Part shown: one piece after another, positions 2,194-30,673 of the stretch
Layout: each line of letters begins with the position of its first letter
Numbering within the stretch: the first letter of the stretch is position 1
From: an uncultured virus (IMG/VR IMGVR_UViG_2049941000_000127)
Taxonomy: Duplodnaviria; Heunggongvirae; Uroviricota; Caudoviricetes
Direction: 5' to 3' (one strand)
IMG/VR virus record: IMGVR_UViG_2049941000_000127
Length of the DNA: 32,726 nucleotides
The notes under the pieces: model-generated
Told to the model about the DNA's origin: nothing
The model's database searches: none
What the model saw: only the letters and a program-made list of their open reading frames with translations
Made by a program: the position numbers and the translations under genes

Positions 2194-3074
2194 CTACAAT
2201 TCAAAAGTTAAAAACCCGTCTGAATGATATTATTATTGCAACGGGTCAACGGCTCGAACTTATACAAGATCAATCAGGGCTTTACATTCGAGAAAAGACA
2301 GCCGCAACGATATATAACTATTTCGATTATAACGGCTATATTGATTATAATAATCCAAATATACCTTTTATTGTGGGATTCAATCAATCCGGGATTGTTC
2401 TTGATAGTATGGACGCGGCGCGACATATACTGATAGCAGGGACAACGGGAAGCGGTAAAAGCGTGTTTTTACATAATCTGATAACTACTTTTTCTTGCAA
2501 TCCTAACTGCTATTTGTATTTGGTAGACTGCAAACAAGTGGAATTCGCTATATATGAAAAAAACGCTTTGATTGCTTCCGATGTTTTTGGGGATCAATCC
2601 GCGGGGAGCTTTACCGCCGCGCTCGTTGATATAATGCAGGATCGTTATGAACAAATGAAGCGCGCCGGGGTTAATGATTTTAAAGACTTTCAAAAGATCA
2701 ACCCAAACGAAAAAAGACATATTTTGATTATTGACGAATTATCCGACCTTTTGCACGACAAACAAAGTGAGCGGGTTATTGTTCCGCGGTTGTTACGTCT
2801 AGCGCAAAAAGGAAGGGCGGCGGGTGTTCATGTTATACTTGCAACGCAACGCCCGGATGCGTCCGTTATCAATGGAACGTTAAAAGGTAACATACCAACT
2901 CGAATAGCTTTTCGAACAATTTCAAACATGGACAGCCGTATAATTCTAGATCAATCAGGCGCGGAACGTCTAGCCGGGAACGGTGACGGGTTATATTTGC
3001 GAAACGGGGCTTTTAACCTTGAACGGGTACAAAGTCCGTATATATCCATTGACGATATCAGGACTAAAACATAA
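2194..3074 (+). CDS. FtsK/SpoIIIE-family ATPase, 5' end lost in gap
   Basis: Walker A AGTTGSGKS, Walker B ILIIDE, AQKGRAAGVHVILATQRP, GAERLAGNGDG. The frame stays open upstream of the called GTG back to the gap (TIQKLKTRLNDIIIATG...). Confidence 0.93.
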
Positions 3075-3089
3075 TAGGATCATCAGAAT

Positions 3090-3126
3090 AAAAAGAACCT
3101 TGATATAATATCAGGGTTCTTTTTTT
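3090..3126 (+). terminator. rho-independent terminator after the FtsK-like gene (possibly bidirectional)
   Basis: AAAAAGAACCTTGATA-TAA-TATCAGGGTTCTTTTTTT hairpin with T-tail. Confidence 0.8.
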
Positions 3127-3350: not shown

Positions 3351-3522
3351 CTATCGCTTTAATGAGCGCATTATATACGATCTTTGCCCTATCGTGTGAT
3401 ACCCATACATAAATAAAATCCTTATCATCAAAGCTCAATGAGTAGTTATGAAATCTCCCGTTTCTTGCTATATATCGCCTTAACAGAAACAGTATTGCCT
3501 TTTCAAGTAGTTTGTTTATCAT
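3325..3522 (-). CDS. hypothetical protein (65 aa)
   Basis: ORF with AAGGAGAG SD, last gene of the leftward operon. Confidence 0.6.
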   Translation of the reverse strand: MINKLLEKAILFLLRRYIARNGRFHNYSLSFDDKDFIYVWVSHDRAKIVYNALIKAIEKSRTNDF

Positions 3523-6385: not shown

Positions 6386-6767
6386 CTAAAAACTATCGTT
6401 ATACTCTCGCTCATCTTCTGTCCCCTTCTCGTCAAGTCTGTCAGCCGCTTCGTTGACATATTCCTTTTCATCAGATAACAAGTTCGATGTNNNNNNNNNN
6501 TGGGATGAGCCGTCTTTGATCAGATATCCGTGCTCCCGGAGATATTTGAACATCCTTGTCTGTCCGATCTCGTACCCGTTCTGGGTGATGAGCTTCGCAA
6601 GCTCTCCGATCAGGATCGATGTCTTGCTTGCNNNNNNNNNNTGCTTCCTCATCGATGTCTTCCTGGGTGAACGACTGCGGGACTTCAAGAGCTACAAACT
6701 GACCGCAGAATCTGCATGCCCCCTGAACCTGTTTCAATTCGAATTCATTTTCTGTCTTCTTTGCCAT
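6386..6767 (-). CDS. hypothetical protein split by gaps (N-part 6642-6767, probable C-part 6386-6490)
   Basis: MAKKTENEF...CRFCGQ with AAGGAG SD; interrupted by an inserted duplicate contig. Confidence 0.5.
6501..6631 (-). repeat. strain-variant duplicate of antirepressor segment 7579-7707
   Basis: Near-identical sequence between N gaps. Confidence 0.9.
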
Positions 6768-6769
6768 GT

Positions 6770-7403
6770 TTAGTCTCCTTTCGCTTCATGGTATTTCATT
6801 CTCACTGTCCATCCGGTGCATCCGTATCGCTTGCCAAGCTGTTCGAATGTCATGTGTTCTTCGTCATGTAGCCTGATAACTTCATCCATCGGCAAATTCT
6901 TTTTCTTTCGTCCCGGATTGCGCCCGCTGCCCTTTTCCGGTTTTGGCTCTTCAGGATCCATCCGCTGTTGTGCTTCGGCTATCTGTTTTGATACTCTTTC
7001 GGACTTTTCCTTTTCCCTAGCTGCATAGTATGCCGCCTTGATGTCCGCGATGTCTTTGCGCTTCTTCAGGTCTTCGACGATNNNNNNNNNNTAAAATCTT
7101 TTTCTTTCGTCCCGGATTGCGCCCGCTGCCCTTTTCCGGTTTCGGCTCTTCAGGATCCATCCGCTGTTGTGCTTCGGCTATCTTTTTTGATACTCTTTCC
7201 GACTTTTCCTTTTCTCTGGCTGCATAATAGGCCGCCTTGATGTCCGCGATGTCTTTGCGCTTCTTCAGGTCTTCGACGATGGTTTCCTTCTTCTCGACCT
7301 TTTCCGTGATTTCAACCTCGTCCGTGATGTTCAGAGCGTTCATGACCGCCTTGATCTCTTCCTGTGTCGTGACTTCGATTATCACCTTCATTCTTGTGCT
7401 CAT
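6770..7403 (-). CDS. HTH-containing protein, assembled as two overlapping variant contigs (6770-7081, 7092-7403)
   Basis: About 6899-7081 duplicates about 7098-7280; C-terminal MTFEQLGKRYGCTGWTVR HTH-like motif. Confidence 0.7.
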
Positions 7404-7416
7404 TGTTTGTCCCCTT

Positions 7417-7707
7417 TCATGATGCATTCCCCAAAAACTTGTTGATGAAATATTGCTGTCCCTTGCCCGTGACCTTTGTCGTCTTCGTGATCCGGACAGA
7501 TCCGTCAGGATTCTGGACGTTGCTCTCTTTGATCTCGAAGAGTCCTTGCTGAACGTATCTCTGCATCGGCATATTCCGGGATGAGCCGTCTTTAATCAGA
7601 TATCCGTGCTCCCGGAGATATCTGAACATCCTTGTCTGTCCAATCTCGTACCCGTTTTGGGTGATGAGCTTCGCAAGCTCTCCGATCAGGATCGATGTCT
7701 TGCTTGC
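7417..7707 (-). CDS. phage antirepressor, C-terminal KilAC (ANT) domain, N-terminus in gap
   Basis: SILIGELAKLITQNG...GQTRMFRYLREHGYL...GLFEIKE...TTKVTGKGQQYFINKF. Confidence 0.92.
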   Translation of the reverse strand, partial: ASKTSILIGELAKLITQNGYEIGQTRMFRYLREHGYLIKDGSSRNMPMQRYVQQGLFEIKESNVQNPDGSVRITKTTKVTGKGQQYFINKFLGNAS

Positions 7708-7758
7708 NNNNNNNNNNNNNNNNNNNNNNNNNNNNNNNNNNNNNNNNNNNNNNNNNNN

Positions 7759-8130
7759 AAATAGGTGTCCTCGATTCTCCGTTGTCATACACATTCAACG
7801 TGTCGGCAATTTCTGTCTCTTCCCATCCTTGCCCCCCTAGAATTTCTAGGGTGTCCTTGCTTTCTGAATGTTTTGAAGTATGACTTTTCCGTCTGCGACA
7901 TATTGATTTCCGACTCCCTTATAATCACAAGCGCATAAAGCTCCTACTGTATCACAAGTGCTTCGCTGCCCCCCCCATAGATTCCGCCGCTAGCCTTTAA
8001 TGACGCGCTTTTATCGTTTTCTGTATATTTGTCATAAGCATCCTGACTCACACATATAGACGGATTGATTGTTGAAGGTTGACAGAGTGCCTGTTCTTTC
8101 TCGCTGTATGAGGATTCCTTTACCCCCCCC
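7759..8130 (-). other. array of short frame-staggered Gly-rich cassettes downstream of the C5 methyltransferase core (putative target-recognition modules)
   Basis: Peptides GGGKGILIQRERTGTLSTFNNQSV, SASLKASGGIYGGGSEALVIQ, TVGALCACDYKGVGNQYVADGKVI and FRKQGHPRNS/GQGWEETEIADTLNVYDNGESRTP lie in alternating frames; G-tracts at three of the frame junctions. Confidence 0.65.
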
Positions 8131-8759
8131 TCACATCCTGCGCGTTCAAGGAAGCTGATTGCTTCACAAGAGCCGTTCTGAGCTGTTCCGGTAATATCTT
8201 TCCCCGCTTCTCCGCTCTGTTCAGAATTCCCTGACAAGCTCTTTCGCTCAAAGAGTATTTCGGGTGCGGATTGTCCTGCAAAATCTGCGACAAGCGAGAT
8301 TCTCTTTCGTCTTTGGGGAGCTCCCCAAAACTGTGCATCATGAACTCGCCAAGCAATAGACCACCCATCTCCCAGAATGGCTCCTGAAGGACTCCACTTC
8401 GCCCCCCCCTCAAGTCTAGGAATAACGGCAGCTTCGTCCGCGATTTTTGCGGTTTCTTCAAGGACGGCTCGGAAGTCTTCTCCATTGTTTGAACTAAAGG
8501 CTCCGGGGACATTTTCCCAAACCATATATCTAGGTCGAACAGGCTCAGTTGCCCCTCGCATTGATAATTGTCGAATACACTCATTTCGCATCTCCTTAAT
8601 TATTCTTATTTGCTCCATGAATAGGCCGCTTCTTTCGCCTTCAAGTCCCTTGCGCCTTCCGGCGATCGACAAATCCTGACATGGACTTCCGCCGCATACT
8701 ATATCCACGATAGGCACTTCAGATCCTTTTATTTTTGTTATATCTCCATAATGTTTCAT
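7944..8759 (-). CDS. DNA (cytosine-5) methyltransferase catalytic chain lacking N-terminal motif I
   Basis: Motif IV GGSPCQDLS, motif VI WENVPG, motif VIII PQRRKR; starts at MKHYGDITKI. Confidence 0.93.
   Translation of the reverse strand: MKHYGDITKIKGSEVPIVDIVCGGSPCQDLSIAGRRKGLEGERSGLFMEQIRIIKEMRNECIRQLSMRGATEPVRPRYMVWENVPGAFSSNNGEDFRAVLEETAKIADEAAVIPRLEGGAKWSPSGAILGDGWSIAWRVHDAQFWGAPQRRKRISLVADFAGQSAPEILFERKSLSGNSEQSGEAGKDITGTAQNGSCEAISFLERAGCEGGVKESSYSEKEQALCQPSTINPSICVSQDAYDKYTENDKSASLKASGGIYGGGSEALVIQ
8120..8584 (-). CDS. overlapping alternative-frame gene, M.EcoHK31I beta-subunit-like
   Basis: 154-aa ORF nested in the MTase; SRLSQILQDNPHPKYSLSERACQGILNRAEKRGKILP; AAGGAG upstream of ATG. 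Confidence 0.75.
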   Translation of the reverse strand: MSVFDNYQCEGQLSLFDLDIWFGKMSPEPLVQTMEKTSEPSLKKPQKSRTKLPLFLDLRGGRSGVLQEPFWEMGGLLLGEFMMHSFGELPKDERESRLSQILQDNPHPKYSLSERACQGILNRAEKRGKILPEQLRTALVKQSASLNAQDVRGG

Positions 8760-8762
8760 ATT

Positions 8763-9092
8763 TCACCAATTTGTCGCGATATCTACAATGTCCTTTTCCG
8801 TTTCGTGATAGTCGATGACTATTCCTGTCCCCCTGGATGTCTCGATGATCGTCCCGTATGGAACCGATTTATCTGCTGCCAATATCACGAAGCCATTATA
8901 TGTCTTGATTCCGTCTTCCCTGACCGCATACGCGTCACGGATCCCGAAGTGTTCATCCGCCCGCTGCACAACCTTCTTCATGTTCAGGTTGTACCATGTC
9001 TCGGTGTGATCCATGAAGCGGTTGACCCCTTTTGCCGCCGTCAGGACTGTCAGTGCAAGAAGTGTCTGTGTTGCCATTGTTTTCAATCTCAT
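8763..9092 (-). CDS. hypothetical protein, possibly 3D/double-psi beta-barrel-like
   Basis: VILAADKSVPYGTIIETSRGTGIVID...DIATNW resembles the 3D-domain pattern. Confidence 0.6.
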   Translation of the reverse strand: MRLKTMATQTLLALTVLTAAKGVNRFMDHTETWYNLNMKKVVQRADEHFGIRDAYAVREDGIKTYNGFVILAADKSVPYGTIIETSRGTGIVIDYHETEKDIVDIATNW

Positions 9093-9213
9093 TGTTCCCC
9101 CTTTCTGCGGCCCCGGAAGGCCGCTTATGACTTTTGGTTTTGTGATACAATTTCAGGTATGCTTGAAGGTTTCTTTCGGCTTTCGCCCGGTGTTTCAACC
9201 GAACCTTTAAGGT

Positions 9214-28450: not shown

Positions 28451-28775
28451 GCAGGCGGATGAAATACTGAAACAGGCGGAAGAGCGCGGAGTCAATTCGA
28501 ACTTCTTCTTCGTCACTACATTTAAGCGGTATCAAGTCCAGATGAAGATCCTGATGGACCTTGAGAAAGCCATTGCTGAACACGGAATGGTCATATCCAA
28601 GGAATACGTCAAAGGCCGTCAGAATCTCGTTACGAATCCGGCGATCACGGAATATAACAAGACCGCAACAGCAGCGAACGGAACAGTCTCGACGCTGATT
28701 AACATAATCAAGACACTTTCGAATGAGCCTGATGCTGTGGATGCCCTGTCCGAGTTCCTGAAGGACAATGGATAA
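28451..28775 (+). CDS. terS: terminase small subunit (partial)
   Basis: EYVKGRQNLVTNPAITEYNKT (P27-like); overlaps the terL start. Confidence 0.85.
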
Positions 28776-30673
28776 AAAAAATTATATCTTCGCGTACTAC
28801 CAGAAGATCAAGGACGGCTCGATCGAGGTCGGACAGTGGGTGCAGATGTTTTATGAGCTGATCATCGCCGGGATTGAGGACAAGACGTATATCTTCGATC
28901 AGCAGCGGGCGAACAGGGCGATCAAGTTCATTGAGACATTTTGTAGACATAACAAGGGAAAGCTCGCTCCGAAACCTCTCAAGCTTTCGCTCTGGGAAAA
29001 AGCGTTCATTTCCTGTATTTACGGAATATTAGACAAAACACGCAAGCGGCAATTCCGCGAAGTTGCGCTATTTGTTGGGAGAAAATGCGGGAAAACATTA
29101 CTAGCTTCCGCCATTATGACGTATGAAGCATACGTTGACGGAGAGTTCGGATCCGAAATCTATTGCGTCGCTCCGAAGCTCGATCAGGCGGATCTTGTAT
29201 ATTCGGCATTCGAGTTCACAAAAGACAAGAATCCGGATCTNNNNNNNNNNTATTTCCTGTCTTTACGGAATATTAGACAAGACACGCAAGCGGCAATTCC
29301 GCCAAGTTGCGCTATTTGTTGGAAGAAAATGCGGGAAAACATTACTAGCATCCGCCATTCTGACGTATGAAGCATACGTTGACGGAGAGTTCGGATCCGA
29401 AATATATTGCGTCGCTCCGAAGCTCGACCAGGCTGATCTTGTATATTCGGCATTCGAGTTCACAAAAGACAAGAATCCGGATCTCGCAAAGCGGACGAGA
29501 AAAAGAAAAACCGATTATATCATTGACGCAACAAACACAACGATCAAGAAGATCGCGTTCAACGAGAAAAAGGCTGACGGATATTCCCCGATGCTGACAG
29601 TAGCTGACGAGATGTCATCATGGCCCGCAGAACGTGGCCTGAAGCAGTGGGAAGCAATGACATCCGGAACGGGTGCCAGATCCGAGCCGATAACACTTGC
29701 CATCTCAAGTGGCGGTTACGTCAATGACGGCATATATGACGAATTATTCAAGCGCGGAACACGCTTTCTGAAAGGAGAAGGAGCTGACAAGCATCTTCTC
29801 CCTTTGTTTTATACGATCGATGATATTGACAAATGGGATGATGTAAACGAATTGCGGAAATCACTTCCGCAGCTCGGGGAATCAATTTCGGTTCAGTTCA
29901 TTCTTGATGAAATAGATGTCGCCCGGGAATCTCTCTCGAAAAAGACGGAATTTCTCTGTAAATATTGCAACGTCAAGCAGAACAGTTCTCAGGCATGGCT
30001 TGACACGAAGACAATCGCCAAGTGCTTCGGTGATCATCTCGAGCTTGAGGACTTTCGGTCAAGTTATTGTGTCGCCGGGATCGACCTGTCCCAGACGACG
30101 GACCTGACGGCAGCAACTATCATCATCGAAAAGAACAGGGAACTCTATGTCTTTGCCAAGTTTTGGCTACCGGCTGAAAAGATAGACGATGCCATTGCAA
30201 AAGATGGGATCCCTTACAACCTCTATATCAAGCGCGGGTTATTGGAACTGTCCGGGGATAATTTTATTGATTATCACGACTGTTATCAATGGCTTGTTGA
30301 TATGGTCGAAAAATATGAGATTTTGCCGTTAAAAGTGGGATATGACAGATATTCCGCACAATATCTCGTTCAGGACCTCAAAACATACGGATTTCAGACA
30401 GATGATGTATATCAGGGTGACAATCTCTGGGGTGTCCTTCAGGAGATGGAAGGACTTTTCAAGGATGGAACCGTTCACATGGGTGACAACGACCTTTTGA
30501 AGATCCATCTTCTCAATTCCGCGATCAAAATGAATGCGGAGCGCGGAAGAGGTCGATTGATAAAACTATCAGCAAAAGATCACATCGACGGATGCGCGGC
30601 TCTGGCTGATGCTTTTTGCGTCCGTCAAAAATGGTTCAATGAGATCGGAGACAGACTCGCAAATAAGGATTGA
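28768..30673 (+). CDS. terL: terminase large subunit (two overlapping variant contigs)
   Basis: LSLWEK, Walker A GRKCGKT, Walker B VADE, nuclease GIDLSQTTDLTA, HIDG; 29009-29240 duplicated at 29251-29483. Confidence 0.95.

Follow-up and report, generated by a model that had tools for sequence, protein, structure and literature searches.

We analysed a 32,726-nucleotide stretch of DNA from an uncultured virus of the Caudoviricetes (IMG/VR record IMGVR_UViG_2049941000_000127), here called the window, which carries on its minus strand a C5 DNA methyltransferase (methylase) gene with four runs of G and a second open reading frame (ORF) lying inside it (Table 1). The principal ORF of the gene, chain A, matches PF00145 (E 8.3e-25; score 88.3, cut-off 22 bits; covering only positions 46-130 of the 324 in the profile) and the DNA methyltransferase family phrog_116 (E 5.7e-44), and the scaffold around it is of the siphovirus type, in keeping with the assignment to a phage C5 enzyme made in an earlier note on this DNA.

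Chain A opens with MKHYGDITKI just 5' of motif IV (GGSPCQDLS), directly after an unrelated ORF, and continues through motif VI (ENVPG) and motifs VII-VIII (WRVHDAQFWGAPQRRKR) into a poorly conserved linker. The catalytic motifs IV, VI and VIII (QRRKR) share one frame. Past the second G run (T2), chain A takes the 'Y' version of a segment that is read in two frames, followed by a TLK-type module, and its end, ...GGGSEALVIQ, has the ...IQ terminus of seven homologous proteins. Motifs IX, X, I and II had no match anywhere in the window, and the gene enters a gap of N at 7758. The methylase is divided here among at least three ORFs.

Table 1. Features of the methylase gene in the window. TRD, target recognition domain; aa, amino acids; nt, nucleotides; b, bases.
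Feature	Position	Strand	Description
Chain A, 271 aa	7944..8759	-	From the ORF list; PF00145; phrog_116
alt, 154 aa	8120..8584	-	Beta-like; +1 frame, entirely within the chain A gene
AAGGAG hexamer	8592..8597	-	Shine-Dalgarno-like; from the methylase K-E codons of 'IKEM'; 7 nt before the alt ATG (8582-8584)
T1	8402-8409	-	G8; within chain A and alt, motif VI/VII interval
T2	8123-8130	-	G8; three-state junction at the end of alt
X segment (GKGILIQRERTGTLSTFNNQSVYMCESGCL, then stop)	8032..8121	-	TRD-like TL module, third frame; at G8 not reached from any start codon
T3	7969-7976	-	G8; chain A terminates ...GGGSEALVIQ
DYKG module (QRSTCDTVGALCACDYKGVGNQYVADGKVILQNIQKARTP, then stop)	7846..7968	-	TRD-like cassette; silent in the present state
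Chain C start (MSQTEKSYFKTFRKQGHPRNSRG...)	7785..7901	-	ATG within the NQYV codons of the DYKG module
T4	7832-7837	-	G6; tract shown to vary
TLN module (QGWEETEIADTLNVYDNGESRTPI...)	7760..7831	-	Continues into the N gap
N run, 51 b	7708-7758	no strand	Interrupts the methylase gene; 3' end of the gene falls in the assembly gap

The motif order indicates that the methylase family is circularly permuted and begins at motif IV, because the relatives, among them the Faecalibacterium phage FP_Toutatis and many IMG/VR loci, run IV-VI-VII-VIII, variable region, IX, X and then I-II at the C-terminus. The best structural matches of the model of a fused relative were the plant enzymes ntDRM and DRM2 (Foldseek E 6.5e-3 over 114 columns; VIA Z 6.0-6.8).

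We also found insertions within the catalytic motifs of some relatives. The methylase frame of ~11 of 69 is broken exactly within motif IV, where a 4-nt insert containing a stop (TAGA or TAGC) lies between Cys and Gln (GGSPC/QDLS). These inserts have no homopolymer and occur at ~3370-3390 in loci L040, L048, L061, L063, L069 and L084, and also in L035, L039, L045 and L055; motif IV of the window itself is intact. In addition, a Hint/intein-like insert (CLIADALIT...VANGIICHN) splits motif VI (ENV/.../CGAFSS) of the homologous methylase in L012 (~2560-3100; same contig as L060).

Poly-G tracts and recognition modules

A scan of the 32.7 kb for runs of six or more C or G returned only four, three C8 and one C6 on the plus strand, at the positions of T1 to T4 in Table 1 and in agreement with the earlier note; runs of G on the plus strand reach five at most. 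On the coding strand these are four G runs within 578 bases of one C5 methyltransferase gene. Dinucleotide-preserving shuffles gave an expectation of 0.44 G8 matches where three were seen; 2 of 100 shuffles reached three. The bare G8 count is only moderately unusual and is modest evidence; what stands out is that the runs cluster in a single gene and on a single strand, a signal backed by the enrichment across the family given below.

The consequence of each tract length was read from the three-frame translation with a simple rule: loss of a base shifts the reading from frame f to f+1, and gain of a base shifts it to f-1. With G8 at T1 the frames of chain A and of the overlapping ORF (alt) are both intact, one G fewer would join motifs IV-VI to the alt module, and one more would join the N-terminus of alt to motifs VII-VIII. 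T2 has three outcomes. At G8 chain A continues to the Y segment and the TLK module and alt stops; at G9 chain A reads the X segment (GKGILIQRERTGTLST...) and alt reads Y and the TLK module; at G7 alt reads X and chain A stops. At T3, G9 extends chain A by the DYKG module (...GALCACDYKG...), and G7 provides an ATG immediately before this module. Finally, G5 or G8 at T4 joins the start of chain C (MSQTEKSYF..RKQGHPRNSRG) to QGWEETEIADTLN... (QGWEETEIADTLNVYDNGESRTP module), and G6 or G7 gives no join. Three of the four tracts are located at frame junctions, and the peptides and length-by-length frame consequences listed in the earlier note were all recovered in this translation.

The modules between the tracts are conserved. 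The window holds four modules of the TL/TI type, and up to ~eight are present in locus L007. The X module is in frame in FP_Toutatis ORF2, in L007 and in the homologous proteins P0004 and P0147; alt is followed by X in 72 homologous proteins and by Y in 22. The DYKG module is in frame in L010, P0121, P0159 and P0207, and is also present in L036 and L018. Chain C, which with G6 at T4 runs out of its frame and ends after a total of 38 aa, has the same overlapping start in L010 (NMSETGSALF) and L036 (NMCQTENVSF). The TLN module is contiguous with RKQGHPQN in P0128, P0214 and L036, and in relatives is followed by a further module and then by motifs IX, X, I and II. In the window, stops close the X and DYKG modules after ~30-40 aa, and motifs IX-X are unreachable in any single-tract state. 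The cassettes pointed out in the earlier note are conserved TRD-like modules, in frame in relatives, but they are serial pieces of one variable region distributed over several chains and not alternatives at one slot. A helix-turn-helix-like insert (...ISIREISERLNKPKTLVEHWFRKDKCFAIPDADIW...) was also found among the recognition modules of the variable region in P0239, a 727-aa protein, and in the IMG/VR locus L012.

We compared contigs from four runs of four studies over positions 7760-9100 (1341 bases). All 20 runs listed are assembled contigs, a form that drops minority variants. At T4 the source-sample run carries G6, X5 carries G7, and X6 and X19 both carry G8, the last three runs coming from three other gut studies at ~97-99% identity. 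These differences at T4 were the only indels listed over the 1341 bases, with 4-24 substitutions per contig. The G8 form of T4 is equal in length to L036, which is free of the tract and has EQGQG at the site. In the source sample, a contig of word depth 61.7 carries G6, G8 and G8 at T4, T3 and T2, and one of word depth 58.5 carries G8 at T1.

More distant relatives carry other lengths at the same positions, as the earlier note had anticipated. The T1 site of FP_Toutatis is G9, which breaks the gene, and its annotated ORF passes from motifs IV-VI into the alt module; the T1 position recurs in IMG/VR loci as G7 in 15 and G8 in 4. T2 is G9 in L018 (79% nt identity), where alt is in frame with the X segment, and this position recurs as G7-G9 at +90 to +119 from the alt motif. 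T3 is G9 in L010 and reads into ...TVGALCAVDYKG... (DYKG module). At the T3 site of 19 homologous proteins we found the SE.L.IQ reading in 10, DYKG in 3, a short third reading in 5 and a variant in 1. The mycobacteriophages Omega and Porcelain have G8 and G9, respectively, between identical flanks. Restoring the frame in FP_Toutatis needs +1 or -2, and therefore tract lengths are not comparable across loci with different flanks; restoration of FP_Toutatis by G8 is ruled out by the frame rule.

Two further details concern the mycobacteriophage loci. In Omega (L098, 1089-2393), with G8, motifs VIII and IX share one frame with a single in-frame stop between them, and the region is annotated as gp127 and gp128 'DNA methyltransferase'. 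In Porcelain (L004, 1589-2789), G9 leads instead to a ...VAALTANGVG.CG.DDNQ... module, which the Aeromonas phage BUCT552 carries in frame.

Based on 74 distinct related IMG/VR loci, in which coding-strand runs of seven or more were counted, tracts of G are enriched in this gene family. We found 91 G runs in 235,392 bases of methylase zones and 9 in 260,953 bases of flanks (93 and 10 with duplicates). Runs of the other bases were not enriched (zones against flanks: A 28 and 45, T 5 and 20, C 2 and 8), and the G content was alike at 0.298 in the zones and 0.282 in the flanks. At least one such G run lies in the gene in 43 of the 74 loci, and the richest relatives have ten (L034), seven (L071) and six (L030). 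The recurring places are the motif VI/VII interval (T1), the end of the +1 ORF (T2) and the boundaries between recognition modules. Frame junctions coincide with 41 of 87 tracts and with 217 of 1523 random positions in the same zones, and are about three times commoner at tracts. Among 53 frame breaks located by homology chaining, 30 have a poly-G of at least six, 3 another homopolymer and 20 none, a generous count in which some intervals are wide.

The overlapping +1 frame and the surrounding scaffold

In the present G8 state alt stops inside T2. A sequence AAGGAG or AGGGAG lies 6-10 nt upstream of the alt start in 26 of 29 loci, and the start is ATG in 24 and GTG in 5. Translated searches (tblastn) matched alt in 102 phage records, and two protein searches matched 505 and 534 clusters. 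The alt match was always in the +1 frame relative to the annotated methylase coding sequence, and open for 130-180 codons, in the five phages checked: Streptococcus phage Javan422, P7 (P1 dmt/dam gene), Mycobacterium phage Porcelain, Aeromonas phage BUCT552 and Vibrio phage 138. Conservation of alt evidently extends to coliphage P1.

We compared the three frames among 14 diverse loci. Over the ~50 codons after motif VIII the mean pairwise identity is 0.547 in the alt frame, 0.306 in the methylase frame and 0.296 in the third frame, and the methylase frame has no stops against 40 in the third frame. Over motifs VII-VIII, the methylase frame is the better conserved (0.595 against 0.324) and the alt frame is without stops. 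This comparison of identity and open frames therefore argues that both frames are read and that the alt frame is under selection. The beta-like overlapping ORF reported in the earlier note is real; its own start and its conservation across the family had escaped that note, as had the circular permutation and the assembly gap at the 3' end.

The conserved module of alt is the C-terminal ~50 aa (LSQIL..PKY.LS..ACQGIL.RA.KRGK.LP..L..AL) and is helical. The N-terminal ~95 aa are predicted to be disordered, with an AlphaFold pLDDT (predicted local distance difference test) below 50 for residues 1-92. For the last ~50 residues two to three helices are predicted, with pLDDT of 65-77 for alt alone and 82-87 in a naturally fused relative. 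Searches with alt returned no Pfam family at E 10 in 16 members, sequence hits in the PDB only at E above 1, no PHROG and only unnamed viral clusters in the ESM Atlas, and PF00145 did not match alt even at E 10. We considered whether alt is a diverged motif IX, since it has an L-S/T-x-R/K-x-C pattern, and rejected this on an hhalign probability of 0.5% against the methylase profile. A further candidate is that alt corresponds to the stretch which comes after motif VIII in canonical enzymes; some VIA rows place model residues 88-140 against the part of DRM that precedes motif IX, but with a root-mean-square deviation (rmsd) of 4.6-7.1 A.

The methylase is one chain, with the +1 ORF standing alone, in 30 loci. 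In other loci the +1 ORF stays in frame across the recognition modules and on to motifs IX, X, I and II, and in this fused layout chain A (IV-VIII) stops ~45 residues past motif VIII. L079 is a stable example without tracts (no G run of six or more): a single ORF takes in alt, TRDs, IX, X, I and II and shares ~440 nt with the chain A ORF. Hundreds of such fused proteins from alt to I-II are on record. Motif IX shares the frame of alt in 17 loci and occupies the third frame in 3. By analogy with the beta chain of M.EcoHK31I, alt is probably a partner piece of the enzyme.

The genes around the methylase form a temperate siphovirus-type set comprising an integrase, endolysin, tape measure, Dit, terminase, portal and replication initiator, and the runs with matching sequence are ruminant-gut metagenomes. 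The window contains 23 N runs. Across the N run from the methylase lies the C-terminal part of an unrelated antirepressor (ANT/KilAC; PF03374 E 6.8e-29, 7417-7794). Near-duplicate tandem stretches separated by 10-N runs were found at 6386-6688 and 7417-7707 (antirepressor C-terminal fragment) and at 7017-7100 and 7100-7290 (lysine-rich ORF). The scaffold thus seems to hold strain variants placed side by side, and therefore the gene order near the 3' end of the methylase is unreliable. The gap at 7708-7758 was not bridged, because a 29-base word from the TLN module had no exact match in the metagenome and viral contigs scanned. The large terminase subunit spans two overlapping ORFs (28768-29370 and 29123-30673) with a 10-N run (29241-29250) at the split, which is probably a scaffold join rather than biology. 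Immediately upstream of the methylase, a minus-strand ORF (8763-9092) matched no Pfam or PHROG family, and FP_Toutatis has a different small ORF immediately downstream of its methylase; on visual inspection the two look similar to 3D/RlpA-like domains.

Proposed enzyme and competing explanations

We propose, with a probability of about 0.6, that the gene, from a temperate rumen phage, encodes a modular and circularly permuted C5 methyltransferase of several chains, whose frames are joined at hypermutable poly-G tracts, with T4 as a live switch. With T1 to T3 at G8, three products would be made. Chain A (271 aa) would supply motifs IV-VIII and one recognition module; alt (154 aa), translated in the +1 frame from its own ribosome-binding site, would add the small conserved helical module; and chain C, starting inside the preceding module in another frame, would by homology reach motifs IX, X, I and II. 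Slippage during replication would alter a tract by one or two G, and the length would set the frame downstream. Each length would give a flexible joint since a run of G encodes glycine in every frame, which may be the reason that G rather than A or T is used.

In this enzyme the three G8 tracts would represent a coherent and apparently stable setting, with chain A and alt intact and chain A ending at the common ...LVIQ. T4 would be the live switch, as only G8 (or G5) would link the start of chain C to the rest of the enzyme. The G6 copy in the window is most likely OFF and one slip from ON, and the G8 copies from two other studies would be ON. Heritable switching by slippage is supported, and we infer that slippage is frequent within the population, that alt binds the enzyme, and that switching would alter methylation of the phage DNA and thus its survival against host restriction. 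It is possible, and we put it forward tentatively, that the tracts act as a heritable routing system which determines the modules to which each overlapping gene is fused and whether the S-adenosylmethionine-binding chain is made, giving many specificities per population, with alt as an obligatory and as yet unannotated subunit of a very large family of phage methylases, the Dmt protein of coliphage P1 among them.

Several observations weigh against the proposed enzyme. T1 to T3 stay at G8 in near-identical contigs wherever they are covered, that is in X5 and X6 at T1, X5 and X19 at T2, and X5, X6 and X19 at T3, so that in this lineage one tract of four is shown to vary. No listed contig of X6 crosses T2 (the pieces end at 8101 and start at 8130), and X19 has at T1 only ~90-base pieces with 7-9 other letters, perhaps from other phages. 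The tract-length variation expected in the earlier note is present at T4, as G6, G7 and G8 between near-identical phages, and absent at T1 to T3 where these are covered. In addition, alt matches no Pfam family, solved structure or any part of the methylase profile, and the 3' part of the gene, with motifs IX, X, I and II, lies behind the N gap, so that the role given to chain C rests on relatives. In the family, 31 of 74 related loci lack a G run of seven or more in the gene and 20 of the 53 frame breaks have no homopolymer; the tracts are therefore not essential to it. About half of the family tracts are out of phase, which decay would also fit.

The constancy of T1 to T3 also speaks against a combinatorial specificity switch, in which all four tracts would change often and independently, each combination would attach different modules, and the progeny would methylate different sites. 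Other observations fit this idea: every tract borders a TRD-like module conserved in relatives, T2 has three states, all of them occupied in relatives, in which the downstream modules are read by chain A, by alt or by neither of the two, six to ten tracts lie between modules in the richest loci, and partial mosaic matches point to shuffling of modules between phages. However, X and DYKG can be reached only as short, stopped extensions, and therefore the fully combinatorial reading is weaker for this copy. Nor does the variable region resemble the characterised multispecific Bacillus-phage enzymes in sequence, with no Bacillus among 24 matching phage records. We regard free combination of all four tracts as rather unlikely. 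The same constancy would be expected if the DNA lengths were fixed and RNA polymerase or the ribosome slipped, giving a fixed mixture of short and long chains in every phage. The persistence of out-of-phase tracts in the isolate genomes of Toutatis and Porcelain, and the open and conserved state of both frames at T2 and T3, are compatible with such slippage during expression, but differences in the DNA itself exist at T4, between Omega and Porcelain, and between the window and L018 and L010, and none of the 20 listed runs is on record as RNA. Slippage confined to expression is very unlikely to be the full account, though it may occur at T1 to T3.

A gene that is simply broken, by homopolymer errors of sequencing or assembly or by decay, would be in keeping with a gapped scaffold of 23 N runs and duplicated stretches, source data from 2011-2015, a present state that yields no chain reaching IX-X, and the out-of-phase half of the family tracts. 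Against this, the source-sample contigs of word depth 58.5-61.7 show the same tract lengths, the modules between tracts are all open and conserved, and in the three non-source runs the listed indels are confined to one tract. The enrichment, moreover, is specific to G, to the coding strand and to this gene family, and neither random error nor decay would be expected to give that. We therefore consider error or decay highly improbable, and favor a modular, multi-chain methylase with a switch at T4.

Comparison with known systems

Phase-variable methylases, phage contingency loci, and multispecific, split or two-frame, and permuted methylases are each known singly. A literature search, with most subscription journals outside its reach, found no description of poly-G-switched modular phage C5 methylases, of these features in combination or of the hidden frame. 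Methylases are among the principal means by which phages evade host restriction, and a switched enzyme, if confirmed, would allow phages of the gut and rumen to hedge against two kinds of host, those that cut DNA lacking methylation and those that cut DNA bearing it; such hedging would help to explain the shifting host ranges in gut and rumen communities. In routine annotation these genes appear as fragments or pseudogenes, and the overlapping protein has been missed even in P1 and P7. The ~150-codon overlap, in which the hidden frame is better conserved than the annotated one, is a clear natural example of dual coding. Modular C5 enzymes that are split by nature may also serve as a starting point for targeted DNA methylation tools, as M.EcoHK31I has done (PMC2836561).

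M.EcoHK31I of Escherichia coli (YGGCCR) is the known precedent for this arrangement. According to PMC2836561 and PMC3404938, its alpha gene also encodes, wholly in another frame, a beta chain that the enzyme requires for activity and of which the N-terminal ~40 residues matter little. Likewise, alt is read in another frame within the main gene from a start of its own, and combines a disordered N-terminal part with a small module conserved at the C-terminus. The beta chain is said to carry motif IX, whereas in relatives of the window this motif is in the main chain or chain C; the methylase described here is also permuted, has many modules and carries poly-G tracts, unlike M.EcoHK31I. The likeness is one of arrangement and not of proven kinship. 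The natural fusions of alt, TRD, IX, X, I and II give at most indirect support to a two-chain enzyme in which both chains would be required for activity and would bind each other. M.AquI, according to PMC3404938, is a C5 enzyme split in the variable region whose two chains must associate. Chain C similarly begins inside the variable region, both in L010 and in the window, but M.AquI has the canonical motif order, two chains and no switches. The plant enzymes DRM2 and ntDRM share with the relatives the presence of IX-X and then I-II in one chain. Unlike DRM, the family is permuted at a point just before motif IV; DRM has neither the overlapping gene nor the tracts, and the rmsd is good only for model residues 192-302.

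The multispecific C5 enzymes of Bacillus phages studied by the Trautner group (SPR, phi3T, rho11 and H2) are single chains with the canonical motif order and without known slippery tracts. The gene in the window resembles them as a phage orphan C5 methylase with several short tandem modules, putative TRDs that would lie between motifs VIII and IX, each with a T-L or T-I dipeptide, and differs in that it starts at motif IV, has relatives that end in I-II, and is split over at least three ORFs. In phase-variable bacterial methyltransferases, such as the Type III mod phasevarions and Type I hsdS genes with poly-G, the length of a simple repeat sets ON/OFF expression or specificity. Those are cellular restriction-modification genes acting on host expression, whereas the gene described here is a phage orphan C5 methylase that presumably protects the phage DNA. 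Such bacterial systems are reviewed in PMC13076061.

Phage contingency loci offer a parallel for the tracts themselves. In T2 and T4 and in the poly-G receptor-binding proteins of Fletchervirus, reversible homopolymer frameshifts arise by polymerase slippage and serve bet-hedging, as described in PMC12633550, where a poly-G in a Bordetella phage methylase gene is mentioned and not studied further. The known loci have a single on/off tract in one frame, whereas here several tracts lie at the junctions of modules and of overlapping genes, in a family found across hundreds of uncultivated gut and rumen phages.

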